The notes under the pieces were generated by a model that worked only from the letters and a program-made list of their open reading frames with translations, searched no databases and was not told the origin of the DNA. Shown piece after piece: positions 22,284 through 64,000 of a stretch of DNA of 64,000 bases. Each line of letters begins with the position of its first letter. Position 1 is the first letter of the stretch. A program made the translations under genes and the position numbers. This DNA comes from Gammaproteobacteria bacterium. GTDB lineage: Bacteria > Pseudomonadota > Gammaproteobacteria > UBA4575. Location: positions 17,732 to 81,731 of the forward strand of contig JBGCFN010000005.1 in assembly GCA_045106935.1 (NCBI GenBank), read 5' to 3'.

Positions 22284-22288
22284 ATGCT

Positions 22289-27619: not shown

Positions 27620-27792
27620 ATATTAAAATTAGACAATAAAATTGTTTAATATATTTATATATGAATAATCTAATTTAGATTTCATATTAGACTTTCATTA
27701 TAGTAAGAGAATCTTATTGCGCTGAGTAATGTCTTGCTGTTATAACTGTTAAGATAATAAAAAAATATAAATTTGCTGGGGGGCGGTTTTAT

Positions 27793-40487: not shown

Positions 40488-43337
40488 ATGCTCAACTTGT
40501 TCGGCAGAAGCAAAAACAGCGACTCGGATGAGGAAGTATCGGATGCTGCCTTGTTGGAATCCAATGCTAAATATTCAATACAGTTAGATAATAAAGGAAA
40601 TATCCTTTTTATTAGTTTTGGCTTGAAAGAATATTTTTTAATATACGACATTTATGATGTTGCTCAAGTATTACCAAACAATATAGATCAGTTGTGTCAG
40701 TCCTTATTTAAATCTAAAGAATCTCAGGTTGTTAAATGTGAGCATAACGATAAAGTATGGGCATGGGGATTTTCTACACAAGATAAGACTAATGTACTTG
40801 TAGAATTATTAAATCAAAGTGATTTTGAGAGTGTTAACCGATCTTCAGCAAGTGAAGATGTTGCAAACCTGAATGAAGAAATATTTGGCAGTATTCCTGC
40901 GAGTATCTGTATAACGCCATACGACTCATTTGAAGTTATTTATAATAATAATAAGTTTTTAGAAATGTTTTCTATTTCTGAAGATGAAGTTCAAGAGTTG
41001 TCACAGTTAATTAAAAATAAAGCTGTACTTCAGGATATAAAATCTTCGATTAATGGTACCGATCAAGTTGATAATGTTCTTTTTGTCTATACAAAATCAG
41101 GTGAAAGCTTTTGGCAAAATAGAAATTTATATATTTCTATAAACATTAAAAGAACAAAGCAGATATATGGTGATGCATTAGTATGGAAATTTGAAGATTT
41201 CACTGAACTAAAATCATTGCAACATCAACATCAACAATTCAAAAAGAAATTTGACACAGCAATTCAAGCAGCGACCGAGGGAATTTGGGAGTGGTCAAAA
41301 TTAAAAGATAATGGTGATTGGTGGTCAAAGCCAATGTTTAGCTTGTTGGAATTGGATAAAGAGAATTCTAAACCGTCTTTCGAACTAATAAAAAGGTTAA
41401 TGCATCCTAAAGAGAAGAAATTATTCGAACGTCATGTTGAAAATGAGATTCGTAGTAAACAATTCTTTTCAATGGAATGTCGTTTATCTGTTAAGGAAAA
41501 AGGATTTCGTTGGTTTAGGCTAAGAGTGGTAGGTTCTTTTGATTCTAGTGGTGATCTGAATAAAATGATTGGCTCTCTAGTTAATATACATTCAGAAAAA
41601 ACAAATAGAATCCAATTGCAGCAAGAGAAAGATAAAGCAATGGCAACACTAAACTCTATTGTTGATGCTGTGATAACAACTGATGCTGAAGGGGTTGTTG
41701 AATATGAGAATTCTGCTGCAGAACGGTTAACTGGTGTTTCCAGAAAAGATACGCGCGGCAAACGAATCGAAAACGTTATTTCTTTCTATAAAGAACATTC
41801 TATGGAAGATATTGACAACCCTGTGCTTGTTTGTTTGGATTCGGGTGAGAGGATGGGGCAAAAGATCTATGCGGATATGCTTGATAAAGACGGTACTCGA
41901 TATACAGTGCAAGTAATGGCTACGCCTCTAGTACGAAAAGATGGAGAAGTATTTGGTGCGGTACTAGTACTTAACGATGTCACCAATATTCGAGTGTTAT
42001 CTCGTCGATTAAAATATCAGGCCTCACATGATATTTTAACTAAGCTAATAAACCGCAGTGAGTTTGAACGGAGAGTTTCTACTGCAATCACACTGGCTGA
42101 AAATAATGAAGGTAATTCTGCTGTTATCTATATTGATTTAGATCGATTTAAGTTAATAAATGATATTTGTGGGCATGCTGCAGGTGATGAACTGCTCAAA
42201 CAGGTGGCTAAGTTATTGCGCAGTATTGTGGGTAATAAAAACTCTGTTGCGCGTATGGGGGGTGATGAATTTTCTGTATTACTTGAGGGGATTGAGTTTT
42301 CATATGCAGAAAAAATGGCAGAGAAAATTCTAGCAGATTTGGCTGCCTATCGATTCTCTTGGGATGAAAAAACATTTTCAATTGAATGCAGTATAGGACT
42401 AGCAGAAATACAACCAACATGTGATGGATTAACCTATATTTTAAATGCGGTGGATAGTGCATGCTATTTAGCAAAAGAATCTGGCCGTAATTGCATTCGC
42501 AAATATAGTGATGGAGATGACACGATTATTGAGAGGAAAGGGCAAGAACGCTGGATTCAACATTTTGATAAAGCAATCGATTCAGATGGCTTGGTGCTTT
42601 ATGCTCAACCAATTATTTCTTTAGACAAAAGTAAGCCTAAGAAAACATCTATTGAAGTACTAGTACGTATGCTGGACGATGATGGCAGTATAATCCCTCC
42701 GAATGCATTTTTACCTGCTGTCGAGCGATATGATCGTGCATATAAGTTAGATAAATGGATCATTGAAAAAGTGTTTGAATATATAAGTTCTCATAAGAAA
42801 CAAGTGAGAGAACTTACTAAAATTTCAATCAATCTATCTGGGCAATCTGTCGCTGAAGATGACTTGTTACCTTTTATACAAGAGAAATCTAGAGAATATA
42901 GGATTGACTCTAGTAAAATTTGTTTTGAAATTACTGAAACCGCGGCGATTGCTAATTTGACTACTGCGATTGATTTGATAGAGCAACTTAAAGATGATGG
43001 GTTTCTATTTGCATTAGATGATTTTGGTTCAGGGCTTTCCTCGTTTGCTTATCTTAAAACACTACCAGTGGACTTTTTAAAAATTGACGGAATTTTTGTT
43101 AAAGATATGCAAACAGACAAGGTCAATTACGCAATGGTGAAGGCTATCCATGACATGAGTGCTGTCTTAGATAAACAAACCATCGCTGAATATGTTGAAA
43201 ATGAAGCGGTTGTAGAGTTATTAACAGAAATTGGTGTAGATTATGGACAAGGTTTTCATTTAGGTAAGCCAGAGCCAATAAGTAATTTTTTGTCTAATAA
43301 AGGTTTCTTTCATAAGAAGGCTAATTCGGCCGCATAG
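40488..43337 (+). CDS. PAS/PAC-GGDEF-EAL c-di-GMP turnover protein
   Basis: GGDEF site ARMGGDEFSVLL, EAL motifs IEVLVRM, FEITE and KIDGIFV, and upstream PAS repeats. 949 aa. Confidence 0.85.
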   Translation: MLNLFGRSKNSDSDEEVSDAALLESNAKYSIQLDNKGNILFISFGLKEYFLIYDIYDVAQVLPNNIDQLCQSLFKSKESQVVKCEHNDKVWAWGFSTQDKTNVLVELLNQSDFESVNRSSASEDVANLNEEIFGSIPASICITPYDSFEVIYNNNKFLEMFSISEDEVQELSQLIKNKAVLQDIKSSINGTDQVDNVLFVYTKSGESFWQNRNLYISINIKRTKQIYGDALVWKFEDFTELKSLQHQHQQFKKKFDTAIQAATEGIWEWSKLKDNGDWWSKPMFSLLELDKENSKPSFELIKRLMHPKEKKLFERHVENEIRSKQFFSMECRLSVKEKGFRWFRLRVVGSFDSSGDLNKMIGSLVNIHSEKTNRIQLQQEKDKAMATLNSIVDAVITTDAEGVVEYENSAAERLTGVSRKDTRGKRIENVISFYKEHSMEDIDNPVLVCLDSGERMGQKIYADMLDKDGTRYTVQVMATPLVRKDGEVFGAVLVLNDVTNIRVLSRRLKYQASHDILTKLINRSEFERRVSTAITLAENNEGNSAVIYIDLDRFKLINDICGHAAGDELLKQVAKLLRSIVGNKNSVARMGGDEFSVLLEGIEFSYAEKMAEKILADLAAYRFSWDEKTFSIECSIGLAEIQPTCDGLTYILNAVDSACYLAKESGRNCIRKYSDGDDTIIERKGQERWIQHFDKAIDSDGLVLYAQPIISLDKSKPKKTSIEVLVRMLDDDGSIIPPNAFLPAVERYDRAYKLDKWIIEKVFEYISSHKKQVRELTKISINLSGQSVAEDDLLPFIQEKSREYRIDSSKICFEITETAAIANLTTAIDLIEQLKDDGFLFALDDFGSGLSSFAYLKTLPVDFLKIDGIFVKDMQTDKVNYAMVKAIHDMSAVLDKQTIAEYVENEAVVELLTEIGVDYGQGFHLGKPEPISNFLSNKGFFHKKANSAA

Positions 43338-43638
43338 AACTAATTGTTCTTAATTTCACTCTTACAAGTGGCATCTTAATTTCGTCTTCATATCATGTTT
43401 TATATGTGTCTTGATTTCTATACTTATGTTTTTAAGTATTGATAATTTTCGTGCTAAAATTAACCATGCAAATGAGAATCATTATTAACTGGTCTAATAA
43501 GTAGTAAATTAAGTGTATGAATAATATGATTATTTACTATTGTGATTGATGAGTATATTTGGTGATAGGGTGAAATTTATTGCATTATTGAAACATCAAA
43601 TGCGTACAATAGTAAGATTAGCAATTCTGGAAGAATAA

Positions 43639-44187
43639 ATGAAAATAGCCCTAATATCCCTTCTATTTTATCTGGTTATTAATACTAATTTTGTCTTAGC
43701 AGAGACAAATTACTACTTACAACCAGGTGATGTACTGTCTGTTTCTGTCTGGAAGGAAGAAGATTTACAGCAATCTGTTCTTGTACGTCCCGATGGAGGC
43801 ATTTCATTTCCGCTTGTTGGAGATATTCGTGCGAGTGGTAAAACGGTGGAAGATGTCCGCCAAATAATAACGAGAAAACTAGCAAAGTTAATCCCAGACG
43901 TTCAAGTGAGTGTGGCGTTACAAGAACTAAATGGTAATTTAATTTATGTCGTTGGAAAGGTGAATCGGCCTGGAGTGTTCCCATTTAGTAAAAATGTAGA
44001 TGTATTACAAGCGTTGGGAATGGCAGGAGGGGCGACAGCTTTTGCTGGTTTAAATGAAATAAAAATATTACGTAGATCTTCTGGCCAATTGAAGTCAATA
44101 CCATTTCGTTATGTCGATATAGAGAAAGGCAGAAATCTACAGCAAAATATAATTTTGCATAGTGGTGATACCGTTCTTGTTCCATAA
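43639..44187 (+). CDS. Wza-like polysaccharide export protein (Poly_export/SLBB), PEP-CTERM-locus type
   Basis: Signal peptide, then YYLQPGDVLSVSVW and PLVGDI.ASGKTVEDV, 182 aa. First gene of the EPS locus. Confidence 0.7.
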   Translation: MKIALISLLFYLVINTNFVLAETNYYLQPGDVLSVSVWKEEDLQQSVLVRPDGGISFPLVGDIRASGKTVEDVRQIITRKLAKLIPDVQVSVALQELNGNLIYVVGKVNRPGVFPFSKNVDVLQALGMAGGATAFAGLNEIKILRRSSGQLKSIPFRYVDIEKGRNLQQNIILHSGDTVLVP

Positions 44188-44193
44188 AAACTA

Positions 44194-45390
44194 ATGATCG
44201 TTAGAGATTCTATGAAAGTAATAACATTATCAATTTTAGCGCTAATATCATTTGCAACAGTATCCAATGTGGTGCTTGCGGATGGATGGTTTTATCAAAC
44301 AACTTTTAGTTCTCAACTTGAAGCAGATGATAATAAACGTCTACGAACAGATGACGAGAAAGGAGTGATTGGTGCAAATGCACGAATCGATATTAAACTT
44401 TCTAATGTGACTGAAATTAGTGAAGTATATGTTCGAGGTGCTCTTCGTTCAGTGCGCTATGATGGAAGTGAAGATCGAGGAATAGATACGGATGATCAAT
44501 TATTATATGCAGGAGGTCGCTGGAACGGTGAACGTTCACAGTTCTCAATTGATGGGGAATTTCTTAGGCAGTCATCACAGCTAACAGAGTTAACAGATAC
44601 TGGATTCTTTGATGATGTGGATCGTCGAGTAACTAAGTCAATTGAGCCGCAGTATTCATATATATTATTTGAAGACACACAAGCATTTGTTGGGCTTAAT
44701 TACGAAGAAGTTGATTTTCCAAATAGTATTCCCGTTAATTTGACGGAATATACTGTTGAAGGCGGAAATCTTGGTGTGATTCATACAATTAATGAATTAA
44801 ATTCTGTCACCGCAAGTGTATTTCATTCTCAATATGAAGCAGATACATTCTCTAATGAAGTTGATACAACTGGTGTCAATGTCCGATATGCTAAAACCAT
44901 TAATGAATTATGGGATGCTTATGCGCAAGTGGGATACCGCAAATCAAATTTTAAAAATGTGGTTTCGGGAATTGTTGTGCGTGATGATGATACTGGTGAA
45001 TCTTATGATGTCGGCGCAACACGGCAATCAGAATTATCTACACTAAATGTATCTGCCAGTAATGAATTACAACCTAGTGCATCTGGTGATGTGAATGAAC
45101 GGTTAACGTTAAATTTTGCTTACAATCGATCGTTTAGTGACTATTGGGCAGGATTAATAGATTTTATTTGGCTAAATAATGAATCGGTTAATAATGAGGG
45201 TAATGATAATGACCGTGAATATTGGCAATTTACATTAGGTGCAGATTATCGAATAACACCTGCATGGACAGCCACAGCGCGTCTTCGTCATAGAGAGCAA
45301 AATAGAGATGATATTTCGGGTTCTCGAGCAGAATCTGATGCAGTGATATTAGGTATTCGTTACGCTGGTAATAATAAAAGAATAAAATAG
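44194..45390 (+). CDS. putative outer-membrane beta-barrel protein of the EPS locus
   Basis: Signal peptide, alternating amphipathic strands and a C-terminal aromatic residue pattern. No specific family assignable. Confidence 0.35.
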   Translation: MIVRDSMKVITLSILALISFATVSNVVLADGWFYQTTFSSQLEADDNKRLRTDDEKGVIGANARIDIKLSNVTEISEVYVRGALRSVRYDGSEDRGIDTDDQLLYAGGRWNGERSQFSIDGEFLRQSSQLTELTDTGFFDDVDRRVTKSIEPQYSYILFEDTQAFVGLNYEEVDFPNSIPVNLTEYTVEGGNLGVIHTINELNSVTASVFHSQYEADTFSNEVDTTGVNVRYAKTINELWDAYAQVGYRKSNFKNVVSGIVVRDDDTGESYDVGATRQSELSTLNVSASNELQPSASGDVNERLTLNFAYNRSFSDYWAGLIDFIWLNNESVNNEGNDNDREYWQFTLGADYRITPAWTATARLRHREQNRDDISGSRAESDAVILGIRYAGNNKRIK

Positions 45391-45392
45391 TA

Positions 45393-47165
45393 ATGGATAA
45401 TGCAACTAGTGAGTTTGAAGATGCACTCGAGCCAGAGAAAAGTCTTGGTGACTGGATTCGAGCTGTTAAAAGAAGAAAAGTAGCTGTTGCTGTCACTGCA
45501 AGCATATTACTCATCGCGTCTGCTTTATTGGCTTTCTTGTTACCGGCTAAATATCAGTCGGCGGGGACAATTTTAATTGAGCAGCAGGAAATCCCGCAAG
45601 ATTTTGTTCGGTCGACTATTACGACCTTTGCTGATCAGCGACTTCAAGTGATCAAGCAACGTGTTATGACTTCCACTAATTTGTTTCAAATTATAAACAA
45701 ATTCAATCTCTATCAGGATATGTTGCAAGAAGAGCCGAGAGAGGTTGTTCTTGAAGAGATCAGAGATGCTATTTCGCTTGATTTTATCAGTGCTGATGTG
45801 ATCGACCCACGCAGTGGAAGACCCGTTCAAGCAACTATTGCTTTTAAAGTCTCTTACGAGCATGAATCGCCAGCGTTAGCACATAAAGTTGCCAATGAGA
45901 TTACAGGTTTATTCCTCAATGAGAACATTAAAGAACGCACGCAAAAAGCTCAAGATGCAACAAAATTTTTAGAAGATGAAGCTGATAAATTAGAAGGTGA
46001 GATAAATAAACTTGAGGAAAATTTAGCAGAGTTTAAAACGGGTAACGTAGAGAAGTTACCAGAACTTGTATCCATGAATTTAAACTTAATGGATAGAACA
46101 GATCAAGAGATTAAGCAAATTGATCAGCAGTTACGAACACTTAGGGAAAGACAAATATATTTGCAATCTGAGCTTGCTCAGATGAATCCAAATCAAGCTT
46201 TATTTAGTGAGCAGGGTGAACGTTTGCTCGGTTCAGGTGACCGTTTGAAAATCCTTAAAATAGAGCTTGCACAATTATTGGGGGTATATTCTCCGAATCA
46301 TCCAGATGTATTAAGAACAAAGCGTGAAATATCAGCTTTAGAAAAAGATAGCGGACAAAATAGTAGTGGCTTTAAAGAAATTAATGCTGAATTACAATTG
46401 TTGAGACAACGACTTCAGGAAGCAGAGTTGAAATATTCTAAAAATCATCCTGATGTTAAGTCGCTTAAACGTTCTATTGCAGGTTTAGAAAAGTCACTTA
46501 ACGATTCTGATTTTAATGCAGAATTTCAAGTCAATAGTAGCAATGTATCTAATCCAGCATATTCACAGTTATTAGCTCAATTGGATGCGTCTAAATCTGA
46601 AATTAATAGTCTCAAGATTACGCGTTCATCACTACAAACAAAAATAAAAATGTTGGAGAGAAGGTTAATTGAATCTCCAGAGGTTGAACGCAAGTATAGA
46701 GCATTAGTACGAGACTATGATAATGCTCGAGCAAAATATGCTGATGTCAAAGCTAAGCTTTCTGAAGCAAAAATAGGAGAGTCATTAGAACTAGGGAAGC
46801 AAAGTGAACGATTTACTATAATCGAGCCACCATTGCTGCCTGAACAGCCAGTCAGTCCCAATCGACCTGCTATTTTATTATTAGGAGTTTTATTGAGCGG
46901 CATTACAGCACTAGGCGTTGTACTGCTAAAAGAAAGTTTGGATGATGCAATTTATGACCGTACAACTGTTCTCCAAATGACTGGTTTTATGCCAATTGCT
47001 GTTTTGCCTACTATGTATACTATTGAGGAAGTATCAAAGACTAATAATACAAAGTTATTTTTATTAGGTATGGGTTTAATTGGCACGGCTTGTTTACTTA
47101 CGTTAATTCATATTTTTTATCTTCCACTTGATGTGCTTTTTTATAAAATTCTGAGAAAAATATAA
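45393..47165 (+). CDS. polysaccharide chain-length determinant (Wzz/PCP) protein, PEP-CTERM-locus subfamily
   Basis: N-terminal TM, a long coiled-coil periplasmic region and a C-terminal TM. 590 aa. Confidence 0.65.
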   Translation: MDNATSEFEDALEPEKSLGDWIRAVKRRKVAVAVTASILLIASALLAFLLPAKYQSAGTILIEQQEIPQDFVRSTITTFADQRLQVIKQRVMTSTNLFQIINKFNLYQDMLQEEPREVVLEEIRDAISLDFISADVIDPRSGRPVQATIAFKVSYEHESPALAHKVANEITGLFLNENIKERTQKAQDATKFLEDEADKLEGEINKLEENLAEFKTGNVEKLPELVSMNLNLMDRTDQEIKQIDQQLRTLRERQIYLQSELAQMNPNQALFSEQGERLLGSGDRLKILKIELAQLLGVYSPNHPDVLRTKREISALEKDSGQNSSGFKEINAELQLLRQRLQEAELKYSKNHPDVKSLKRSIAGLEKSLNDSDFNAEFQVNSSNVSNPAYSQLLAQLDASKSEINSLKITRSSLQTKIKMLERRLIESPEVERKYRALVRDYDNARAKYADVKAKLSEAKIGESLELGKQSERFTIIEPPLLPEQPVSPNRPAILLLGVLLSGITALGVVLLKESLDDAIYDRTTVLQMTGFMPIAVLPTMYTIEEVSKTNNTKLFLLGMGLIGTACLLTLIHIFYLPLDVLFYKILRKI

Positions 47166-47167
47166 TT

Positions 47168-47971
47168 GTGGACAAAATTACAAAAGCGCTAGATCTCACC
47201 AGAGCAAAGAGAGACAAGCAGAATTCTGTTTCGCCAATCACCGAAAGAAGTGATGCTGTGCAATTTCCTAGGGCGAATTCTTACGCGATAAAAGAATTTA
47301 GTCCGAATGCTCTAACTTTAGAAAAAAACAGAATTCTCAATAGTGCTAGTCGTGAAGAGATGATTCAACCATATAAAGTGTTGAGAACGCGATTAATGCA
47401 TATCATGCAAGAGAAAGATTGGCGCTCTATTGCTGTGATAAGCCCAGCTAAAGATGAAGGTAAGTCTACTGTAGCGATCAATTTGGCTATTAGTATAGGT
47501 AATAGCCGAAAAGAAAATGCAGTATTGTTAGATTTGGATTTATTAACACCATCTATACATTCTTATTATGGTTATCAGCCTGACGTGGGATTAGATGAGT
47601 ATTTTAAACAAGATAAGCCGCTAAAAGAAATTTTAGTGTCACCAGGTATAAAAGGTTTGGCAATAGCACCATCAATTAAGCCATTGCATGATTCATCTGA
47701 GTATTTGTCAACGACTAAAGGTGCAGATTTAATACGTGAAGCAAATTCAGTATATGATGATTCAATTGTCATTGTTGATTTGCCGCCGATTCTTGTAAGT
47801 GATGATGCTATATCATTTCTACCGCATGTTGATGCTGTGTTATTGGTGATTAGAGAAGGTCAAACTAATAAGCTAGAACTGCAACGGGCCCAAGAGATGC
47901 TTGCTGGCGTAAATATTGCTGGTGTTGTCATTAATGATTCCTTGGAGCCTGCAACATTAGGCTATTACTGA
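47168..47971 (+). CDS. ParA/MinD-like tyrosine-kinase-type ATPase (EpsG-like)
   Basis: Deviant P-loop SPAKDEGKST and a Walker B IVIVDLPP. Confidence 0.6.
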   Translation: MDKITKALDLTRAKRDKQNSVSPITERSDAVQFPRANSYAIKEFSPNALTLEKNRILNSASREEMIQPYKVLRTRLMHIMQEKDWRSIAVISPAKDEGKSTVAINLAISIGNSRKENAVLLDLDLLTPSIHSYYGYQPDVGLDEYFKQDKPLKEILVSPGIKGLAIAPSIKPLHDSSEYLSTTKGADLIREANSVYDDSIVIVDLPPILVSDDAISFLPHVDAVLLVIREGQTNKLELQRAQEMLAGVNIAGVVINDSLEPATLGYY

Positions 47972-48008
47972 TTCAAATTTTAGAGTAGCTGCTTAAATAT
48001 AACTGCCT

Positions 48009-48830
48009 ATGTATAACAGTCATTTTGGATTGAGCGAAAAACCATTCGCATTATCACCAGATCCTGATTTTCTATACTTCACAAGTAGCCATCGTCTAGC
48101 AATGACGATGTTGGAGTATGGTATTCAAAATGAATCTGGATTTACATTAATTAGTGGTGATGTAGGGTGTGGTAAAACCACATTAATTAGATATCTATTG
48201 CGTAGCATTGATAAAGATCATGTGGTTGGCTTAATTAGTAATACACATGAATCATTTGGGGATCTTATTGATTTAGTATTGTTAGCATATGGATTAGATT
48301 ATAAAGATAAAACTAATATTGAAAAATATCATACATTTGAAGATTTCTTATTAGAGCAATATCGCTCAGGTAAGAGTACATTATTAATTGTTGATGAGGC
48401 TCAGAATCTTAGCCCTAAAATGTTAGAAGAACTTAGAGTAATTTCTAATATTAATTCTGGCAAGGATCATGTTTTTCAAATTATCCTATCGGGTCAGCCA
48501 GAAATTAGAGAAACATTAAGATTGCCAGAATTGAAGCAATTTGCTCAGAGAATATCATCTGACTTTCATCTTAAGCCATTAACTCTTGATCAGTTAACAG
48601 AATATATAAAATATCGATTGGAAGTGGCTGGAGCTAAACGCATGCTATTTACCGATAAAGCTATTCGAATGGTATTTAATTTTAGTAAAGGTGTGCCTAG
48701 AGTGGCGAATACATTTTGTGATTTAGCAATGATATATGCATTTGCTGATGGGTTAGACGTTGTGGATTGGAAGACGGTGATGAGTGTAGCTATCGATAAG
48801 AAAAACAGTGGTGCAATTGGAATATTATAA
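48009..48830 (+). CDS. ExeA-like AAA ATPase, PEP-CTERM-system associated type (no peptidoglycan-binding domain)
   Basis: FALSPDPDFLYFTSSHRLAMTMLEYGI plus Walker A SGDVGCGKTT. It is a paralogue of the gspA N-terminal half at 12078. Confidence 0.75.
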   Translation: MYNSHFGLSEKPFALSPDPDFLYFTSSHRLAMTMLEYGIQNESGFTLISGDVGCGKTTLIRYLLRSIDKDHVVGLISNTHESFGDLIDLVLLAYGLDYKDKTNIEKYHTFEDFLLEQYRSGKSTLLIVDEAQNLSPKMLEELRVISNINSGKDHVFQIILSGQPEIRETLRLPELKQFAQRISSDFHLKPLTLDQLTEYIKYRLEVAGAKRMLFTDKAIRMVFNFSKGVPRVANTFCDLAMIYAFADGLDVVDWKTVMSVAIDKKNSGAIGIL

Positions 48831-48846
48831 AGTAATGAGTAATTAA

Positions 48847-50445
48847 ATGAATGCGACAAATGTAACTGGTGAAGTTGGTCAGAAAATAAATGTATGGAGA
48901 TTTACATTACGACAAATTGGCTTAGTTGTTGTTTCATTTATATTATTATATTTTCTTTTTGAGGAGGGAATATTACATGCGATTCAAAAATGGGACTCAC
49001 CCGAATATAGTCACGCATATTTAATTCCTTTCATATCTCTATTTATAATTTGGCAGAATCATTCTGAATTTATCAAGTATAGATTCAGTGGATCATGGCT
49101 GGGAGTACTCATCTTACTGGTCGGTTTATTTTTATTATTGTTGGGAGAGATGAGTACTCTCTATATTATTATAAAATATTCATTGTTGGTCGTTATATTT
49201 GGTTTGGTCTTGTCTCTGACAGGAGTTAAAAGATTTCATTATTTTCTTTTTCCAATCTTTTTATTGTTTTTCACCATACCTTTACCTAACTTCATTTATA
49301 ACAATCTATCAGCATATTTGCAGCTAATTTCATCTAGCATTGGCGTTGAAGTGATTAGATTGTTTGGAATTAGTGTCTTTTTAGAGGGTAATGTCATTGA
49401 TCTTGGAAATTATAAGCTACAGGTAGTAGAGGCTTGTAATGGACTAAGGTATTTATTCCCACTTGTCACATTGGGTGTAATAGCAGCATATTTTTATAAT
49501 GACAGCTTTTGGAAAAAATGTATTGTCGTTATTTCAACGTTACCAATTACCATTCTTATGAATAGTATACGCATAGGTGTTATCGGTATATTAGTAGAGC
49601 ATTGGGGCATTGCTATGGCTGAAGGCTTTCTGCATGATTTTGAAGGCTGGATTATCTTTATGGTGTGTTTTTCAATTTTATTAATTGAGATGTGGCTATT
49701 AACAAAATTGACAACAGGAAGATCGTTGAGAGATGTGTTAAGTATTGAAGTACCCACCAAGCTGAATATGAATAACTTTAATGTGTCTGAAAGACATATT
49801 CCTAAACCGTTTTATGTTTCTGTTTTTATATTGTTATTAATATTGTTTGCACAGTATGCATTACCAGAAAGACGGGAAAATGTACCAGAAAGAAGCCAAT
49901 TCATTGAATTTCCTGTTGATATATCTGGATGGCAGAGTACTCGCAAGTCTATGGAAGCCAAATTCATCAATGCACTTAAATTTGAAGATTATTTGCTCGC
50001 GAATTACTCCAGCAATGCTGGGGCATTAGAATTATACATTGCATATTACGAATCTCAGCGAAAAGGTGAGTCTGCACACTCACCAAGATCATGTCTTCCA
50101 GGTGCTGGCTGGAAAATTACAGATAGAGGTTTGGTTAATATTAGTTATAAAAATCATGTAAATATTGACACGCAAATACCAGTAAGTCGTATGTTGGTTC
50201 AACAAGGTGATAGTAGATACTTAATGTATTACTGGTTTAAGCAACGAAACAGGCATATCACGAATGAATATTTAGTTAAATGGTATTTATTTTTAGATGG
50301 AATAATAAAAAATAGAACTGATGGTGCATTAATTAGAATAATGTTCCCTATTGCACAGCATCAAGATATAAGTACAGCCGATGAAACAGTACAGTTATTC
50401 TTGCAAGAAACATTGCCTATTTTGCCTGAATTTGTACCAGATTAG
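48847..50445 (+). CDS. xrtA: exosortase (XrtA-like) fused to a C-terminal EpsI-family domain
   Basis: Polytopic N-terminal half with the exosortase catalytic motif VVEACNGLRYL and the Arg motif LMNSIRIG. C-terminal soluble domain with SPRSCLPGAGW (EpsI-like). Confidence 0.75.
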   Translation: MNATNVTGEVGQKINVWRFTLRQIGLVVVSFILLYFLFEEGILHAIQKWDSPEYSHAYLIPFISLFIIWQNHSEFIKYRFSGSWLGVLILLVGLFLLLLGEMSTLYIIIKYSLLVVIFGLVLSLTGVKRFHYFLFPIFLLFFTIPLPNFIYNNLSAYLQLISSSIGVEVIRLFGISVFLEGNVIDLGNYKLQVVEACNGLRYLFPLVTLGVIAAYFYNDSFWKKCIVVISTLPITILMNSIRIGVIGILVEHWGIAMAEGFLHDFEGWIIFMVCFSILLIEMWLLTKLTTGRSLRDVLSIEVPTKLNMNNFNVSERHIPKPFYVSVFILLLILFAQYALPERRENVPERSQFIEFPVDISGWQSTRKSMEAKFINALKFEDYLLANYSSNAGALELYIAYYESQRKGESAHSPRSCLPGAGWKITDRGLVNISYKNHVNIDTQIPVSRMLVQQGDSRYLMYYWFKQRNRHITNEYLVKWYLFLDGIIKNRTDGALIRIMFPIAQHQDISTADETVQLFLQETLPILPEFVPD

Positions 50446-50464
50446 CTGTTGATAGAGAATATAT

Positions 50465-52081
50465 ATGCAGTTTTATACAATATTTTTGGTGGCAATGTTC
50501 GCGGCAATTATTTTAATTCCACCACTAACTTATATCTACCAGAAATTAAATATTGTTGATTTACCTGCTGCAAGGAAAGTACATAAAAAACCTATTCCTA
50601 GAGTAGGTGGTATAGCAATTGTTGTTGCAACTATATTTCCAATCATTGCTTGGATTCAGTTGGATGCACCAATATTGGGTGTGTTAATAGGAATTGCGAT
50701 ATTATTTATTTTGGGAATTATTGATGATGCTAGGAATCTATCCTATAAGATTAAATTTATTATTCAAATCCTATCTATTTCTTTAGTGTTTATATATGGG
50801 TTTGTAGATTTGAATGCATCACATTTTGTCGCAAAAGAATTAGTCCCATATGCAGTATTGTTTACAGCCTACTTCTTATTTATTTTAGGTGTAACTAATG
50901 CGATAAATTTGTCTGATGGTTTGGATGGTCTAGCAGGTGGAGAAGCTTTATTGTCCTTTAGTGTGATTGGGTTGCTAGCGTATGAAACGAATAATAGTCT
51001 AATCATTCTTTTAGTATTAGCTATAGTTGGCGCAGTCTTTGGTTTTCTAAGGTTTAATACTTATCCAGCAAAAATATTTATGGGTGATACGGGCAGCTTG
51101 TTTTTGGGGTTTGTCCTAGGCTTGCTTAGCGTTGCTTTGACATATCGTGTTGACAATGCATATGCAAAAATGTTGCCGCTATTGTTGGTGGGACTGCCAG
51201 TGTTAGACACGTTAATGGTAATGATAATTAGATTGTATCATGGAAAATCTCCTTTTAATGCTGACCGAAATCATTTGCATCATCGTCTTTTAGATCATGG
51301 TTTTGCACATTATCAAAGTGTATTAATTATTTATCTTATACAAAGTATATTTGTATTAACTGCGTATTTCATGCGTTATGACACAGAAGTAAATGTGTTA
51401 ATAGCATTTACGATTATTTCAATTTTGGCAATATCGATAAGTTATGCAACTACTAAAGACAATAAGCCAATACTAAGTAATAGTATCGTTAATAAAATTT
51501 TTAATATATCTAGAGACATTGTAAATATTCATACTGAAAAATTGTTTTCTATTCTTGGGGTATTGTTATTGCTGTATACATTAACGGCATCGTTTGCTGT
51601 TGATAAATTCGATAAAGATATATTACTTTTATTATTGGTCATTAGTGTTATAGGTATGATTGGGTTAATTCTGTTAAGAGAAAAGCCTTGTCATTGGATA
51701 GAAAGAGTTGCCATTCATGTGATGATTGTGCTGTCTATATACTTTGGTGTTGGCGTCAATCAAGGAAATATAATGGATGTATTTCAGATTGGCATACTGC
51801 TGGTAAGCGTGGTCATTATTGTTCTGTTATTTTTAGGTGAAGGAAGAAAAAAATTCATTGGTTCGCCATTGGATTTTTTATTAATAGCAACTGCTATTGT
51901 GATACCGAATTTACCAAATTCACCAATAGCTAATCATGGGCTAAGTCTGTTAATACTAAAGTTAGTCGTGCTTTTCTATTGTGTGGAATATGTTTTGTTT
52001 AACGTGACTAGTCATTGGTGGGTAATTCGTTTGACTTTGATAATTGGTGCTTTTGTACCAATTATTTTAAATTATATATAG
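50465..52081 (+). CDS. WecA/MraY-family polyprenyl-phosphate sugar-1-phosphate transferase (GT4) with roughly 200-aa extra C-terminal TM region
   Basis: DDxxN (IIDDARNL), NAINLSDGLDGLAGG and KIFMGDTGSLFLGF motifs. Confidence 0.7.
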   Translation: MQFYTIFLVAMFAAIILIPPLTYIYQKLNIVDLPAARKVHKKPIPRVGGIAIVVATIFPIIAWIQLDAPILGVLIGIAILFILGIIDDARNLSYKIKFIIQILSISLVFIYGFVDLNASHFVAKELVPYAVLFTAYFLFILGVTNAINLSDGLDGLAGGEALLSFSVIGLLAYETNNSLIILLVLAIVGAVFGFLRFNTYPAKIFMGDTGSLFLGFVLGLLSVALTYRVDNAYAKMLPLLLVGLPVLDTLMVMIIRLYHGKSPFNADRNHLHHRLLDHGFAHYQSVLIIYLIQSIFVLTAYFMRYDTEVNVLIAFTIISILAISISYATTKDNKPILSNSIVNKIFNISRDIVNIHTEKLFSILGVLLLLYTLTASFAVDKFDKDILLLLLVISVIGMIGLILLREKPCHWIERVAIHVMIVLSIYFGVGVNQGNIMDVFQIGILLVSVVIIVLLFLGEGRKKFIGSPLDFLLIATAIVIPNLPNSPIANHGLSLLILKLVVLFYCVEYVLFNVTSHWWVIRLTLIIGAFVPIILNYI

Positions 52082-52103
52082 CTAAAATTAATATTTTATT
52101 TCA

Positions 52104-54506
52104 GTGTTACTGAAGGAGTTTGTTGTGAGTAAGTTTTTAATTGTTACATTGTGCGCTGTTTTAGTCATTAGTGGATGTGGTGGAGCTGAGTCAAGGAAAG
52201 AAAAATACATTCAAAGTGGTAATCAACACTATATACAAGATGATTGTAATAAAGCCAAATTAGACTATAAAAATGCACTGCAAATTGATCCAAAAAGTGT
52301 AGATGGGCTTATTGGGTTGGCTAGATGTATGCTAGAAGAGAAAGAGTGGCGTAAAGGATATCAATTGTTAAATGGTGCGTTAGAGCATGACCCTACATCT
52401 GTTGATGCCAAATTGGATTTGGCAAAACTATATTTAATATCAGGTGAAAGTGATAAATCTTATCAATTGATAGAAGAGATATTAACTGCTGAATCTAATA
52501 ATTCTACAGCAATTGCATTAAGAGGTATTTTTCACTTGAAAAATAATACGCTTTCTGCAGCAAGAACTGACTCTGAAATTGCTATTAACCTCGAAGCAGA
52601 TAACTTATCAGCGATTACTTTGTTTTCATCTCTTAAAGTTAAAGATGGAAAGACAGACCAGGCTGCAACGTATATCAGTGATATTGTTAATAATAAAGAA
52701 ATTACTAAGCGTAAAAAGAAAGAGCTACAAGTAATACTAATTGCGTTATACGACCAGCTTAAAGATATTGACAGTGTTATAGATATTTATAAGGATTTAA
52801 TTACACAGTATCCTGATAATTACAGTTATATTTATAGATTATCAGCTATCTATGCTAACAATGATGAAGTTGATCAGGCTGAAGAATTATTATTGACGAG
52901 TATTGATTCTGATGACAGCGATAGTCAGTTAGCCTATATTTCTTTTCTAGATGCTTATAGATCATCTGGTGATGCAACTAAAAAACTAGAAGAGTTTAGT
53001 GCGCAATCTAACAATGGCAAGTTAAAGCTTGCGCTTGGTAAACGCTATCTTGCGAGCAATGAAGAAGAGAAGGCGATATCAGTTTTTACTGACTTGGCCG
53101 GTAAGATAACAATTGTAGAGCATAATGAGGCTAAAAATGAACTAGCATTTTTGCATTTAAAAAATGGTAAATCTGATTTAGCGTTAGAATTAGTCCAGCA
53201 AGTATTATCTGATCAACCAAACAATCTAAGAGCACTAGTCATACGTGGCACATTGGCTATATCTGAGCGTGATGCACCTCAGGCAGTATCGGATTTTAGG
53301 ACGATTTTGCGTGATCAACCTAATAATATTTTTGCTATTAGACAGCTAGCTACAGCATATATATTAAATGACCAAGAAGATTTGGCTAAAGAGTTGTTGC
53401 AGAAAGCTGTCAACATTGATAGTCATGATAAGGCATTAGGCTTGTTGTATGCGCGTCTTCAGGGTAAGGATAATGAATTTGAATCTGCAATTAATACTGT
53501 TAATGAGCTGTTAGAGTCTAATGAAGAAGATCTAGAAACAATTAAAACATTATTTGATTTGCAGATTGCTAACAAAGACTTTGAGGGGGCTAAACATACT
53601 GCTGCAACTATGAAAGCATCGTTGAAAGATAATCCGTTAGGGTATTATCTTTCTGGAGTGTTGTTGCAGAATGAAAACAACAATCTAGCTGCAGAAAAAG
53701 AGTATTTAACTGCACTAGATAAAGAACCGCGTGCAAATGAACCATTATCAGGGTTGGTTAGATTGTATTTGTCTGAAGGTAAGCCTAATAAAGCAATTGA
53801 TCTATTAAATGACATTGTTAGCAAAGATCCTGAGTATTTGGTGCCTTACAATCTTTTAGGTGAGGTAGGTATTAGTATAGAAAATTATTCTTTAGCTGAA
53901 GATAGTTTTAATACTGCAATCAAACTCAATAAACAATGGTGGGTTCCGTATCGAGGTCTTTCCTTAGTACATTCAGCTAAAGGCAATAAAGAAAAATCAA
54001 TTCAAGTGTTACAACGTGGATTTGATAATGGTGTTGGCATTGAACGATTAGGGCTTGAATTAGCGTTAAATCAATATCAGCTAGGTGATAGATCTTCGGC
54101 AATTAATACTTATGAGAAAATTATCTCTGAAATTCCAACGTCCGCATTAGCAAAAAATAATTTATCAATGATTTTGGTTGACGATCAAGCAAATGATCAA
54201 GATATAAATAATGCACTTAATCTTATTGCTGATCTTGAAAAAATTAATGATGCAGCTTCATTAGACACTGTTGGTTGGGTCTACTACCGAGCTGGAAAAT
54301 TTAATCAAGCAATTGAATATTTAGCTAGGGCTGTTGAATTAGCACCGAATGCAGCTGAACTTCATTATCATTTGGGGATGGCCTATGCTGAAGATGGTAA
54401 TAGTCCTGAAAAAGCTAAGCAACATTTGAAGATAGCTGCTGAATCTGAACAAAGTTATGTAGGTAAAGACGTAGCTATTGCTAAGTTTAAACAACTGTCG
54501 CTTTAA
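52104..54506 (+). CDS. PEP-CTERM-system-type TPR-repeat lipoprotein
   Basis: Lipobox LVISGC and about 800 aa of TPR-like repeats. Its context after the exosortase matches the PrsT-like family. Confidence 0.65.
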   Translation: MLLKEFVVSKFLIVTLCAVLVISGCGGAESRKEKYIQSGNQHYIQDDCNKAKLDYKNALQIDPKSVDGLIGLARCMLEEKEWRKGYQLLNGALEHDPTSVDAKLDLAKLYLISGESDKSYQLIEEILTAESNNSTAIALRGIFHLKNNTLSAARTDSEIAINLEADNLSAITLFSSLKVKDGKTDQAATYISDIVNNKEITKRKKKELQVILIALYDQLKDIDSVIDIYKDLITQYPDNYSYIYRLSAIYANNDEVDQAEELLLTSIDSDDSDSQLAYISFLDAYRSSGDATKKLEEFSAQSNNGKLKLALGKRYLASNEEEKAISVFTDLAGKITIVEHNEAKNELAFLHLKNGKSDLALELVQQVLSDQPNNLRALVIRGTLAISERDAPQAVSDFRTILRDQPNNIFAIRQLATAYILNDQEDLAKELLQKAVNIDSHDKALGLLYARLQGKDNEFESAINTVNELLESNEEDLETIKTLFDLQIANKDFEGAKHTAATMKASLKDNPLGYYLSGVLLQNENNNLAAEKEYLTALDKEPRANEPLSGLVRLYLSEGKPNKAIDLLNDIVSKDPEYLVPYNLLGEVGISIENYSLAEDSFNTAIKLNKQWWVPYRGLSLVHSAKGNKEKSIQVLQRGFDNGVGIERLGLELALNQYQLGDRSSAINTYEKIISEIPTSALAKNNLSMILVDDQANDQDINNALNLIADLEKINDAASLDTVGWVYYRAGKFNQAIEYLARAVELAPNAAELHYHLGMAYAEDGNSPEKAKQHLKIAAESEQSYVGKDVAIAKFKQLSL

Positions 54507-55678: not shown

Positions 55679-56131
55679 TTATCCGCCACAGCCACCGATT
55701 GTCACTTTGATGCTTTTAGAAGCAGTAAAGTGTTGATTATCAGATGTAGATACTAGCGCGATAATGTTTGATGATTTGGCCATTTTTACTCGTGTAGAGA
55801 CGTAAGCTTCAATCTTCGGATTGATATCATAGGATGATGTTAAAGGGCTAGGGTTGTTATCGACTAAAATAGATATCATATTGACGTTGTCGATTGTTGT
55901 GTTAACTGTAATTGGAACCACAGCTCAATTTTCAGCAATTTCTGGTGCCTTGATATGGATTGCATCACTGGCATTTGCTGTTTGATTACTAGTCAATTTG
56001 CTGATTAGGTCATCAACATTTGCATGGTCAAATAACTCTTTTTGCCAGTCAGCAAAAGCAAAATTAACTCCACTGAAAAGAGGGAGGGCTAATAAGGTGC
56101 TTGTATTTTTTAGAAATGTTCTTTTAAGCAT
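55679..56131 (-). pseudogene. soxY: soxY interrupted by an in-frame TGA at 55925-55927 (conserved Gly codon position). Could be a nonsense mutation, a read-through or a sequencing error.
   Basis: ORFs 55925..56131 and 55679..55921 are in the same frame. Joined they read ...IHIKAPEIAEN*AVVPITVN...KVTIGGCGG. The Tat-like signal, the APEIAEN(G)AVVP motif and the C-terminal GGCGG are SoxY hallmarks. Confidence 0.6.
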
Positions 56132-56713: not shown

Positions 56714-59305
56714 CTATTTAGTGTGATATTGATCAGCAATTCTATAATTGAGTTCCCTTAACTTGTTGTTATTTAAGGTAATATTGAGGCTTTCTATAGG
56801 CCTTAGTTTGTCAGAATAATTGACCAATGCAGGTGCGTTTAGGTCTATCTCATTAAAGGCTATAAATATCACTGGATGACCGTGCCATTCATGTGGAATC
56901 GTCCATTGTTCATACATGCTGGCAGTTCTGCCTACGGCGTTCCTAGATAAAATATTATCAACTTGCTTGTCAACGTCGTAAAAACGTAAGGAGCTTGCGA
57001 TTGACCATTTGCTCAAACCAACAATGAGTGGTTTTTGACCGGTTTCATTCTCTAGTTGTTTCTCTAGCATGTCTAATTCGTATGCTGTTTGTTGCCAAAA
57101 ATAATGGTTTGTGACTTGAGTATTTATATTTATTGGTAGCCCTAAAGCTGCGTAGTGGAGTATTGCACCATAAATTAAACCTAGAATGGCTGTCGACAGC
57201 AAAGTTAATTTTGTAAATAACTTCTTGTTTGTAAAATTTGAAGTCGGGCTTAAGGCAAATGATATTAATGGAATGGCAATTAACCAGATTGGTGCAGTCC
57301 AATGGAATCGAGGGTAATGAGTGAAACTAAAATACACATATACCAATAAGGGTATGAATGTAAATATGACAAAAAACTGTTTGTAAGTTTTGATGGTTGA
57401 TTTGTTTTGGATTTTATCCTGCAGTAGAGAAGTTATGTTTCTATACGCATTAATGATGAATAATAATATTAATGGAGAGAGAAGAATCATTAAATGAAGT
57501 AATAAGTAATGAGTCGAAAATTCTATAGTTCGATCCAATCGGCGAGTGGTTTGAAATAAAAATGAGCTCCATTCATTTTGTGCATTCCAATAGAGAGTAG
57601 GTGAAAATATCAATAGAGAAATTACTCCAGCAATATATAAAATAGGTTGCTTCCACCATTGTCTGGTTGCTTGATTAACGCTTATAAAAATAATAATGCT
57701 AATTGCAAACAGCGCGATTGAGTACTTTGAAAGCATTCCGATTCCTATACAAATGCCTAAGCTCAGCCAGGAACCGGCCGACTTTTCGAATGTAATCTTT
57801 GCAATAAAGTATAAACATGCAGCCCATATAGCTATTTGTAGTGCATCAGTTGTCGCCAAAAACCCAGTGACTGCTGCAAATGGAATAACGGAAGTCAGTA
57901 TGAGAGAAATATATGCAGAGGTCTTATCAAAGAGCATTGAGCTGAGACGAAATACAAAATATAAAGTGACTATTCCACTAATATATGAAAAAAATCTCAC
58001 ACCAAATTCATTGTCACCAAATACGCTTGTTGCAAGCCATATCAACCAAGCGACCATAGGTGGATGATCTAAGTAGCCTAAGCTTAAATGCTCTTTATAA
58101 TTCCAGTAATATGCTTCATCAGGTATTAATTCAGTTGTGCCTAAGTATAAAAAGCGCAATATCAACATAAAGCCGGTAATTGCAATAGCTAATACTCGCC
58201 AATTGATAGAGCTATATTTAAAGCTATTAGAAGTATTTGCAGGAAATACAATAAATGAGGCAGCAAAATAGTTTACTAAAGCTGCTGCAATAATGGCGGG
58301 ATAAATAGCAAAACCAGGACTGAAATTTAATAAATTGATCAGAATAGCGAGAACTCCGCCACGGATAGTCAGTGCAATCAAGCCAAAGTAAATATACTTT
58401 ATTGCTTTACTCAGCCAGCTATTAAATGAGTTATGTATGTATTTAAATGACCAAATTGAGTTTAAAATATAGTTGAAGGTAGCAGCAATAAAAAAACTGC
58501 TGATATGAGCGCTAGCAATGCTCCATCCTTTACCTAAGAATAATTGGAAGAATAATGCATCTATTACTACACCTAGAATACCAACCATCATAAAACGGCC
58601 AGTAGTAGAACCGCTAACTCTTCCACCGCTTAATTCAATCAAGCGCTGAAAATATTGAATGAGTTGTTTGCCTGAAAGTTTAGACTCACCAAGCACTCGA
58701 TCTGTAAATACAATAGGTGTTTCAGTGACTCGAAATTTGTCTAAGCCTGATGCAAGTAACTCCAATAGTACTTTATAGCCTCTAGCATTTTGGTCAATAT
58801 CGGAAAAACAGGTTTTTTTACAAGCAAAAAAACCTGATGTAGTATCTTTTACATCAGTCAGGACTCTTGCAGGTAATCCACCAAACCATGATAAGAATCG
58901 TCTGTGTGCTGGCCAGTTAGCGATGCCGCCATTTTTGGTGTAGCGACTACCCACGACGACATCATGAGTACCGTTAATGATTGGCTTGAGTAAATCTGGT
59001 ATGCAATCTATGGGATGGCTTAAGTCAGCATCCATTACTAAGATATACTCAGAATGACTAGTTGCTACTCCATCTAAGATGGCTTGTGTTAAATCTGGAT
59101 GGCCCGTGCGTTGCAGTACTGATATCCAGTTGAAACGCTGGCTCCAAGCATTAATTTTTTCTATCGTATTGTCTTTAGACTGGTCATCGACAAACAAAAT
59201 TTCAAGATCGCAATTCTCAATTTTAAGTTGAGTCAACCCTTCTAGAAGCGGGTCAATATTATCCTGTTCATTCAGCGTGGGAATGACTATTGTAGCACTG
59301 CTCAT
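56714..59305 (-). CDS. three-module glycosylation fusion: N-terminal GT2 polyprenyl-phosphate sugar synthase (DPM1/ArnC/GtrB-like), GtrA-like TM segment, and a large GT-C (PMT/ArnT-like, GT39/83-type) membrane glycosyltransferase
   Basis: IVIPTLNEQDNI...VDDQSKDNT...VMDADLSHP (GT2 DxD). GtrA-like FMMVGILGVVIDALFFQLFL. GT-C signature ELIPDEAYYWNYKEHLSLGYLDHPPMVAWLIW followed by about 10 TMs. 863 aa. Confidence 0.65.
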   Translation of the reverse strand: MSSATIVIPTLNEQDNIDPLLEGLTQLKIENCDLEILFVDDQSKDNTIEKINAWSQRFNWISVLQRTGHPDLTQAILDGVATSHSEYILVMDADLSHPIDCIPDLLKPIINGTHDVVVGSRYTKNGGIANWPAHRRFLSWFGGLPARVLTDVKDTTSGFFACKKTCFSDIDQNARGYKVLLELLASGLDKFRVTETPIVFTDRVLGESKLSGKQLIQYFQRLIELSGGRVSGSTTGRFMMVGILGVVIDALFFQLFLGKGWSIASAHISSFFIAATFNYILNSIWSFKYIHNSFNSWLSKAIKYIYFGLIALTIRGGVLAILINLLNFSPGFAIYPAIIAAALVNYFAASFIVFPANTSNSFKYSSINWRVLAIAITGFMLILRFLYLGTTELIPDEAYYWNYKEHLSLGYLDHPPMVAWLIWLATSVFGDNEFGVRFFSYISGIVTLYFVFRLSSMLFDKTSAYISLILTSVIPFAAVTGFLATTDALQIAIWAACLYFIAKITFEKSAGSWLSLGICIGIGMLSKYSIALFAISIIIFISVNQATRQWWKQPILYIAGVISLLIFSPTLYWNAQNEWSSFLFQTTRRLDRTIEFSTHYLLLHLMILLSPLILLFIINAYRNITSLLQDKIQNKSTIKTYKQFFVIFTFIPLLVYVYFSFTHYPRFHWTAPIWLIAIPLISFALSPTSNFTNKKLFTKLTLLSTAILGLIYGAILHYAALGLPININTQVTNHYFWQQTAYELDMLEKQLENETGQKPLIVGLSKWSIASSLRFYDVDKQVDNILSRNAVGRTASMYEQWTIPHEWHGHPVIFIAFNEIDLNAPALVNYSDKLRPIESLNITLNNNKLRELNYRIADQYHTK

Positions 59306-59334
59306 TGATTCTTATGTGAAGTGTAGAATGGCGT

Positions 59335-61008: not shown

Positions 61009-61037
61009 TGATATATTGGATTTGTGTAGTGCTTGAT

Positions 61038-62393: not shown

Positions 62394-62395
62394 TA

Positions 62396-63109
62396 CTATT
62401 TATGTAGCTCTTCGAGTAAAACTTCGGCAAGCTTTAAATCAATTTCTTCATCAATATTGACTACAGGGCGTTCAATTATGAGAGGAATGCACTGCTTCTC
62501 CATTAAGTTATTTTGATCAATCAAGCTTTCTCGTGTGGTGGCATAACAAATGCCATTGCGATGGTAATAATCAGGTATCTGTTGGCGTATAGAATATTGA
62601 ATTCCACCTTCTAAGTAGGGGTTGATAAAGCCGTTGTCCGAAAGTTGTAATGTTTTATGTGGTGTGTAATGTCCGGGGGTTTTGCTGACAGTTGCGACGG
62701 TGAAGGCGTTTTTTTCTATTAGTAAACTTACAGCATTTGTAATATCTTCTGGTGTTCTCATTGGGCTGGTTGGTTCAAGTAACACTGAAATATCAAATTT
62801 TTTATTGTAATAATCTTCACTATATAACCACGCATGTTTCCACATATCAATTGACTTCGCATGGTCGGTCGATAATTCTTTGGGACGTGTGAATGGGACA
62901 TCAATATTTTCATTGCGAGCATGAGTGCATATTTCAGCATCATCCGAGCTTAGGACAATTTCATCTATCCAGTTTAGTTGTTTAACACAGTTTGCTGCAT
63001 GGGCAATTAAAGAATTGCCATGAATGTTACGTAAATTTTTGCGTATTATTCCTTTGCTTCCACCGCGTGCTGGAATGACAGCAAGAATGTTTTTGTTCTT
63101 GAATGACAT
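62396..63109 (-). CDS. CMP-N-acylneuraminate / ulosonic acid cytidylyltransferase (NeuA/KdsB-like, CTP_transf_3)
   Basis: ILAVIPARGGSKGIIRKNL...IVLSSDD, 237 aa. Confidence 0.8.
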   Translation of the reverse strand: MSFKNKNILAVIPARGGSKGIIRKNLRNIHGNSLIAHAANCVKQLNWIDEIVLSSDDAEICTHARNENIDVPFTRPKELSTDHAKSIDMWKHAWLYSEDYYNKKFDISVLLEPTSPMRTPEDITNAVSLLIEKNAFTVATVSKTPGHYTPHKTLQLSDNGFINPYLEGGIQYSIRQQIPDYYHRNGICYATTRESLIDQNNLMEKQCIPLIIERPVVNIDEEIDLKLAEVLLEELHK

Positions 63110-63128
63110 GTTTTTCTAAGGATAGCGG

Positions 63129-63926: not shown

Positions 63927-64000
63927 GAAAAATATGTGCTGATACCTGTTTAATTTTAATTGAGGAACGAGTATTAAGGACAGAAGAAAACCTATCTATT

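Follow-up and report, generated by a model that had tools for sequence, protein, structure and literature searches.

A predicted XrtD-type exosortase operon with polysaccharide export genes in an uncultured sulfur-oxidising gammaproteobacterium

The XrtD exosortase and its operon

A cluster of eight genes around an exosortase was analyzed in a 64,000-nucleotide stretch of contig JBGCFN010000005.1 (assembly GCA_045106935.1, Gammaproteobacteria, UBA4575), referred to here in its whole length as the window. The eight open reading frames (ORFs) all lie on the + strand between positions 43639 and 54506, and the gaps between them measure 2-37 bp. Gene roles were assigned by NCBIfam and Pfam scans of the window proteins. 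The tight gene spacing and a conserved leader element indicate that the eight genes very probably form one operon, in which an XrtD-type exosortase system is combined with a Wzx/Wzy-style polysaccharide export apparatus. An earlier sequence-only reading of the window had described an exosortase-linked exopolysaccharide (EPS) export locus, and the family assignments agree with this description. The locus is a typical representative of the XrtD/VPLPA-CTERM family and is already annotated; its host is an uncultured sulfur-oxidising gammaproteobacterium.

The exosortase gene (48847..50445) encodes a protein of 532 amino acids (aa) with a fused C-terminal EpsI domain. With TIGR04152, the model for the VPLPA-CTERM-specific exosortase XrtD, the protein scored 562.4 bits against a cut-off of 400, and the match covers model positions 3-486 of 486. 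The TIGR04152 model itself takes in the fused EpsI domain. The EpsI part, at residues 354-529, was also recognized by TIGR02914 (136.8 bits, cut-off 42.8) and PF11984 (178 bits). Both Pfam domains were present in all of the 120 XrtD homologues listed, many of them named XrtD by NCBI or JGI, and the XrtD naming was found on thousands of homologues. Fusions of EpsH and EpsI have been known since 2006 (PMC1569441). The protein from the window is 100% identical to NCBI entry MFK8026563.1, 'MAG: VPLPA-CTERM-specific exosortase XrtD [Gammaproteobacteria bacterium]', which is encoded on a 101.6-kb contig.

The motif VVEACNGLRYLFP was read in the exosortase. In an alignment of 18 homologues with identities down to 49%, C197 of the ACNGLRY motif, R242 and H263 were invariant. 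The sequence-only reading had called the enzyme an XrtA-EpsI fusion. The fused EpsI and the ACNGLRY motif were correctly seen, and the name of the exosortase needs correction to XrtD. An XrtA identity was rejected, since the protein stayed under the cut-off of the XrtA model TIGR03109 (177 bits against 208) and matched the XrtD model in full length and above its cut-off. The XrtD score is three times higher.

XrtD was found in at least 547 genomes. A set of 82 related gammaproteobacterial XrtD loci, labelled L001 and onward, was used for comparison. L001 is the XrtD locus of a 98%-identical strain. XrtD protein identity among the related lineages is 69-78%. The full eight-gene order, with the Wza-like gene in the same position, was also found in L001-L005, L016, and L053.

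The first gene of the operon (43639..44187) encodes a Wza-like outer-membrane polysaccharide export protein of 182 aa. It carries a signal peptide and Poly_export and SLBB domains (PF02563, 87.8 bits; also PF10531/PF22461), and its score with TIGR03027, pepcterm_export, was 134.9 bits against a cut-off of 180. The second gene (44194..45390) encodes a predicted outer-membrane beta-barrel protein of 398 aa with a signal-peptide-like N-terminus and a borderline PF13505 match. No NCBIfam model matched this protein itself, but its homologues weakly match TIGR03016, an outer-membrane protein model tied to PEP-CTERM systems, with sub-cut-off scores in L004 (38 bits), L080 (44 bits), and L053 (21 bits), and the protein is regarded as a distant TIGR03016 relative. 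The third gene (45393..47165) encodes a polysaccharide co-polymerase, or chain-length determinant, of 590 aa with a coiled-coil periplasmic domain and transmembrane segments. It scored 263.4 bits with TIGR03007, pepcterm_ChnLen, against a cut-off of 278.85, and its Wzz and GNVR Pfam matches were weak.

Two ATPase genes follow. The first (47168..47971) encodes a stand-alone P-loop ATPase of 267 aa that resembles bacterial tyrosine kinases (BY-kinases), with the Walker A motif 'DEGKST' and a C-terminal 'GYY'. Its scores were 133.9 bits with TIGR03018 (cut-off 230.65) and 82 bits with TIGR01007 (cut-off 108). The second (48009..48830) encodes an ExeA/GspA-like AAA ATPase of 273 aa with a PF13401 match and 278.3 bits with TIGR03015 (cut-off 324.5). 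The type II secretion protein GspA, encoded at 12078-13763, reached 282 bits with the same model. The near-equal scores of the two proteins show that this match marks membership of a family and not of a system.

Downstream of the exosortase gene lies a gene (50465..52081) for a polyprenyl-phosphate N-acetylhexosamine-1-phosphate transferase of the WecA/MraY family, of glycosyltransferase family 4 (GT4). The 538-aa protein has a long extra C-terminal transmembrane region; it scored 129 bits with PF00953 and 149.8 bits with the wecA model TIGR02380, under the cut-off of 326. Its homologues behind XrtD in other loci have a median length of 551 aa. GT4 proteins of this kind, of ~540-550 aa, exceed WecA by ~170 aa through extra C-terminal transmembrane segments, and they have no specific family model. 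The last gene (52104..54506) encodes a PrsT-like tetratricopeptide repeat (TPR) lipoprotein of 800 aa with the lipobox LVISGC, which scored 272.9 bits with TIGR02917 against a cut-off of 312.2. In the 98%-identical strain, whose sequence was taken from ENA, the TPR lipoprotein gene is split into ORFs of 496 aa and 298 aa (L001, 13258-15661); in the window it is intact.

The sequence-only reading had claimed all hallmark genes of an exosortase locus in canonical order. The families and coordinates it gave were right, and the 398-aa gene is an extra member of the row. Across the comparison set, the recurrent core consists of XrtD, the long WecA-like GT4 (61 of the 82 loci), and the TPR gene (55 of 82). 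The export genes stand upstream of XrtD in a subset of the loci and are rearranged or elsewhere in others. Other frequent neighbours of XrtD include glycosyltransferases, enzymes for GDP-fucose and dTDP-rhamnose, acetyltransferases, and a heparinase-like lyase. The recurrence of the XrtD/WecA-like transferase/TPR core in sulfur-oxidising Gammaproteobacteria is a comparative by-product of modest value, as is the finding, described below, of PrsK/PrsR behind a minority of XrtD loci.

The leader of the operon contains a promoter-proximal element at 43570..43612 (+ strand), upstream of wza, with a -10-like TACAAT at 43605-43610. In the leader alignment this was the only conserved block, and it is common to the window and L001-L005, whatever gene lies upstream. 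Its retention despite differing upstream genes points to an operon-specific promoter. A conserved promoter region seems to serve the operon alone.

Regulators, upstream control and substrates

The sequence-only reading had reported that no PrsK/PrsR pair adjoins the exosortase genes, and this was verified. PrsK and PrsR were not found in the NCBIfam scan of the window. A FixL-like PAS kinase at 33640-35787 is the one kinase of the window to score at all with the PrsK model (69 bits against a cut-off of 300), and its partner is a single-domain receiver. The GAFTGA motif of sigma-54 activators occurs in no ORF of the window. The region outside the window was read from the ENA contigs of the 98%-identical strain, over 20.4 kb past the 3' end and 7.9 kb past the 5' end. 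Neither PrsK nor PrsR was found in these two extensions.

The NCBIfam models for PrsK (TIGR02916) and PrsR (TIGR02915) are named as XrtA/PEP-CTERM system components. The idea that the pair is exclusive to XrtA systems was dropped, since the GAFTGA scan and the NCBIfam scores revealed genuine PrsT-PrsK-PrsR behind XrtD in several loci. In L040 and L063, the gene order runs XrtD, GT4, fucose-synthesis genes, PrsT, PrsK, PrsR, with the PrsT-PrsK-PrsR stretch at 15302-21524 and 15532-21584, respectively. The scores there were 763 and 761 bits for PrsK (cut-off 300) and 642 bits for PrsR (cut-off 502.6), and the TPR orthologues of both loci exceeded the PrsT cut-off (379 and 388 bits, cut-off 312). 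Homologues of these two PrsK proteins also follow the TPR gene in L034, L038, L033, L012, and L070; the first four of these five loci are counted, together with L040 and L063, as having genuine PrsK/PrsR behind XrtD. The genuine PrsK/PrsR at some XrtD loci makes it reasonable that such a pair had been expected in the window.

In 43 loci the sequence extends 1.5 kb or more past the TPR gene; PrsK directly follows that gene in 6 of them and is missing there in 37. The lack of an adjacent PrsK/PrsR is the majority state of XrtD loci. Haft et al. (2006) found the PrsK/PrsR pair near EpsH in 3 of 13 genomes (PMC1569441).

Immediately upstream of the operon, as the sequence-only reading had noted, lies a gene (40488..43337, + strand) for a PAS-PAS-GGDEF-EAL protein of 949 aa with PF00990, PF00563, and PAS domains. 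The motifs GGDEF, EVLVR, EITE, and DDFGSG are intact, and the protein looks catalytically intact. It had been proposed that the locus is an atypical XrtA-EpsI locus that lost PrsK/PrsR and came under the control of this neighbour through cyclic diguanosine monophosphate (c-di-GMP). This explanation is quite unlikely. In its favour, the GGDEF-EAL gene adjoins the operon on the upstream side in the same orientation, its catalytic motifs are intact, no predicted terminator separates it from wza, and the adjacency is retained in L001-L003. PrsK/PrsR are absent from the 92 kb examined, and the genuine PrsT-PrsK-PrsR behind XrtD in some relatives makes a loss conceivable. The enzyme, however, is XrtD and not XrtA, and with 37 of the 43 assessable XrtD loci also having no adjacent PrsK, no specific loss needs to be explained. 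The genes for PrsK/PrsR could also lie in another part of the genome, which is the case for most of the genomes in PMC1569441.

The comparison of upstream genes also argues against control by the neighbour. The GGDEF-EAL gene stands directly upstream of the operon only in L001, L002, and L003, whose XrtD identity is 76-99%. In L004 and L005, at ~70% XrtD identity, the whole eight-gene operon and the leader element are kept and other genes lie upstream. In L004 these are ExbB, ExbD, TonB, and a porin in place of GGDEF-EAL, with the downstream sox and glycan genes kept. Rfam searches of the leader and the window returned only a tRNA and noise, with no c-di-GMP riboswitch. No PilZ or comparable c-di-GMP receptor domain was matched in the eight operon proteins by the NCBIfam and Pfam scans. 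Beyond the local gene order, nothing speaks for c-di-GMP control of the operon, and the proposal is unsupported speculation. The PAS-GGDEF-EAL gene is a neighbour and not a demonstrated part of the XrtD system.

The expected clients of XrtD are VPLPA-CTERM proteins and not classic PEP-CTERM proteins. In regular-expression and hydropathy scans of all six frames of the window, no real gene was seen to end in a PEP-CTERM or VPLPA-CTERM tail. A hidden Markov model (HMM) built from eight real VPLPA tails scored no higher than 5 bits anywhere in the window, whereas true tails reached 41-54 bits. These results confirm that the window holds no PEP-CTERM tail, as had been stated from the sequence alone. 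The sequence-only reading had named PEP-CTERM proteins and a PrsK/PrsR pair just outside the window as evidence that would overturn it. No sorting tail was found in the 20.4 kb downstream and 7.9 kb upstream, just as no regulator pair was.

In the relatives, genuine tails were recognized. They have the pattern [VI]P[LIV]PA, a hydrophobic helix, and an Arg/Lys cluster, and they stand on proteins with signal peptides. Seven loci carry VPLPA-tagged genes no more than 10 kb from XrtD: L015 (two genes), L016, L053, L055, L065, L067, and L073. Three of the neighbouring tagged proteins exceed the TIGR03370 cut-off and one more is just under it. The presence of proteins above this cut-off beside XrtD indicates that the XrtD/VPLPA pairing holds in this clade. 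A tagged gene lies within 10 kb in 5 of the 34 loci that have full 10-kb flanks. Since tagged neighbours occur only in a minority of the relatives, a window without one is unremarkable. The earlier view that the locus is unusual for lacking both substrates and regulators is thus not upheld.

The tagged gene of L016 (2463-3137, - strand) encodes a small secreted protein with a VPLPA-type tail. A protein search gave 36 homologues (P0244-P0279), whose source names differ and include PEP-CTERM sorting domain, LPXTG-motif anchor, and T9SS type A sorting domain. The variety of names suggests a shared N-terminal domain on which the sorting tag has been swapped. None of the 36 homologues lies on the large contigs of the close relatives of the window, and they are uninformative about the clients in its lineage.

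A second explanation holds that the exosortase has no substrate: in this low-GC lineage, the operon would serve polysaccharide export or modification only, and XrtD would be non-sorting or decaying. It is very improbable. It agrees with the lack of a tagged gene both in the 92 kb and, for the closest relatives (L001-L005), in the 10 kb around XrtD. A preprint also reports many exosortase-containing genomes without a match to a PEP-CTERM model. On the other side, the Cys, Arg, and His residues and the whole protein are well conserved (69-78% identity), which argues for purifying selection on XrtD. The same complete eight-gene operon occurs in L016, where the VPLPA-type tagged gene lies upstream of wza at a distance of 1.5 kb, and the 92 kb cover no more than a few percent of the genome, whose size is ~2.4-2.7 Mb.

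A third explanation, in which Fur represses the operon through a Fur-box-like leader site and makes it iron-responsive, is the least probable of all: the site GCAAATGAGAATCATTATT at 43468-43486 in the wza leader agrees with the 19-bp Fur consensus in 15 of its 19 positions, the best match in the window, and is retained in L001 and L003, but shuffled sequence yields 1.4 sites of equal quality per window, which makes the match not significant alone, the region is very AT-rich, the consensus used is that of E. coli, and conservation of the site does not clearly extend to L002, L004, and L005.

Genes surrounding the operon

The operon converges on a small sox cluster, which is followed by a nonulosonic-acid-type glycan cluster running past the end of the window. 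The order of the sox cluster is soxX, soxY, soxA, and a gene weakly resembling those for SoxAX-binding proteins; no soxZ lies between soxY and soxA. The soxY gene (55679-56131, - strand) contains an in-frame TGA at 55925-55927. At this position L001 has GGA, which encodes the Gly of the conserved 'AENGA' motif. The soxY of the window is truncated, either as a pseudogene or by an assembly error.

The convergent surface-glycan cluster (56714-64000, - strand) includes genes for a GT2-GtrA-PMT2 fusion of 863 aa, two TIGR04396-type proteins, a PseF-like cytidylyltransferase, and a methyltransferase. Its genes past the window (L085, 282-13431) encode NeuB, a 2-epimerase, an aminotransferase, an acyl carrier protein, and an AMP-ligase. 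The glycan cluster of L002 directly abuts the XrtD operon, without sox genes.

A complete type II secretion cluster lies at 12078-25600, 18 kb upstream of the operon. It comprises GspA/ExeA, B, E, F, G, H, minor pseudopilins, K, an L-like protein, M, and the secretin D. The GspA of this cluster (561 aa) is a paralogue of the 273-aa ATPase of the operon. A Pil-Chp-like chemosensory cluster at 3076-11914 contains two receiver proteins, CheW, a methyl-accepting chemotaxis protein, and a 1499-aa CheA-receiver hybrid. One of the receiver proteins falls in a protein cluster whose JGI members are named PilH, and a tRNA gene (11841-11914) follows the chemosensory genes. The genes at 25697-28437 encode a GAF-PAS-HisKA_2 histidine kinase and, behind it, a receiver-ANTAR response regulator, the ANTAR domain being that of RNA-binding antiterminators. 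This pair is flanked on one side by the type II secretion cluster and on the other by poorly annotated genes for beta-propeller, di-haem oxidoreductase-like, and DUF3887 proteins.

Proposed function and relation to known systems

Gene content, catalytic residues, and conserved order were read directly from the sequence. From the exosortase literature, a mechanism for the XrtD operon can be proposed. Proteins tagged with VPLPA-CTERM would be exported via Sec and kept in the inner membrane by the tag. XrtD would then cleave or transfer the tagged clients at the VPLPA motif, and the processed clients would join the polysaccharide matrix exported by the co-encoded Wza/co-polymerase machinery. The tagged clients and the remaining sugar-assembly genes would be encoded elsewhere in the genome; some of the latter may belong to the convergent glycan cluster a short way downstream.

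XrtD is almost always accompanied by the MraY-family GT4 and the TPR gene, and this pairing makes a transfer onto a lipid-linked sugar conceivable. By analogy with sortase A, which uses the MraY-derived lipid II, XrtD may transfer its clients in a sortase-like manner onto an undecaprenyl-pyrophosphate-linked sugar made by the GT4, and in this lineage the adjacent GGDEF-EAL protein might also tune expression. This extension is unlikely as it stands. The pairing of XrtD with an MraY-family enzyme nevertheless offers a testable clue to the molecule onto which exosortases load their clients.

Several points weigh against the assignment of the operon to a working XrtD/VPLPA-CTERM system. In the 92 kb read in total from the window genome and the 98%-identical strain, no VPLPA-CTERM or PEP-CTERM gene was seen, and the clients are assumed. 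In the NCBIfam scan, every XrtA-system model score of the accessory genes is under the trusted cut-off; these scores fit a sister system rather than XrtA itself. The block contains no Wzx or Wzy (flippase and polymerase) and no glycosyltransferase past the priming enzyme. Both of these last points also qualify the hallmark set that had been claimed from the sequence alone. A PDB sequence search returned no relative of XrtD, and no experimental study of any XrtD system was found in the literature searched for XrtD or VPLPA-CTERM. The cleavage or transfer chemistry and the passage across the outer membrane are inferred.

As a discovery the locus carries little weight. The family is curated, the public name of the exosortase is already correct, and the apparent anomalies are the usual state of such loci.

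The operon can be compared with three known systems. With group 1-type Wza-Wzc capsule and EPS export it shares the outer-membrane exporter and the co-polymerase with a BY-kinase-type ATPase. It differs in its short Wza (182 aa, without the C-terminal outer-membrane helix region), in its separate co-polymerase and kinase, in the lack of a Wzb phosphatase, Wzx, and Wzy, and in the exosortase embedded among the export genes.

With the XrtA/PEP-CTERM/EpsH system (PMC1569441), the operon shares the accessory cast of exporter, outer-membrane protein, chain-length determinant, tyrosine kinase, ExeA-like ATPase, and TPR lipoprotein, all of which the XrtA-system models still recognize. The proposed logic, in which tagged proteins are sorted into an exopolysaccharide matrix, is also the same. 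The sorting motif of the XrtA system is PEP, whereas VPLPA is expected for the XrtD of the window, and the window scores stay under the cut-offs for the XrtA model and for all accessory models. The priming enzyme of the window is of the WecA/MraY type. The sugar transferase associated with PEP-CTERM systems is of the EpsB/WbaP type (EpsB2, TIGR03013; PMC9850573). PrsK/PrsR and sigma-54 'PEP-CTERM box' promoters would further be expected of an XrtA system. No such pair was found in the window or its two extensions, and a search for sigma-54 promoters gave 43 window matches against 33 expected, with none in the wza leader.

The closest likeness is to the XrtD/VPLPA-CTERM system itself (TIGR04152 and TIGR03370). 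Cognate clients have not been seen for the window genome, and many XrtD loci sit in large clusters of glycosyltransferase and sugar-nucleotide genes, whereas the window operon is compact and has the priming transferase only. The full-length model match, the fused EpsI, the Cys-Arg-His triad, and the EPS-locus context are all shared with this system, and relatives within the clade adjoin genuine VPLPA-CTERM genes.

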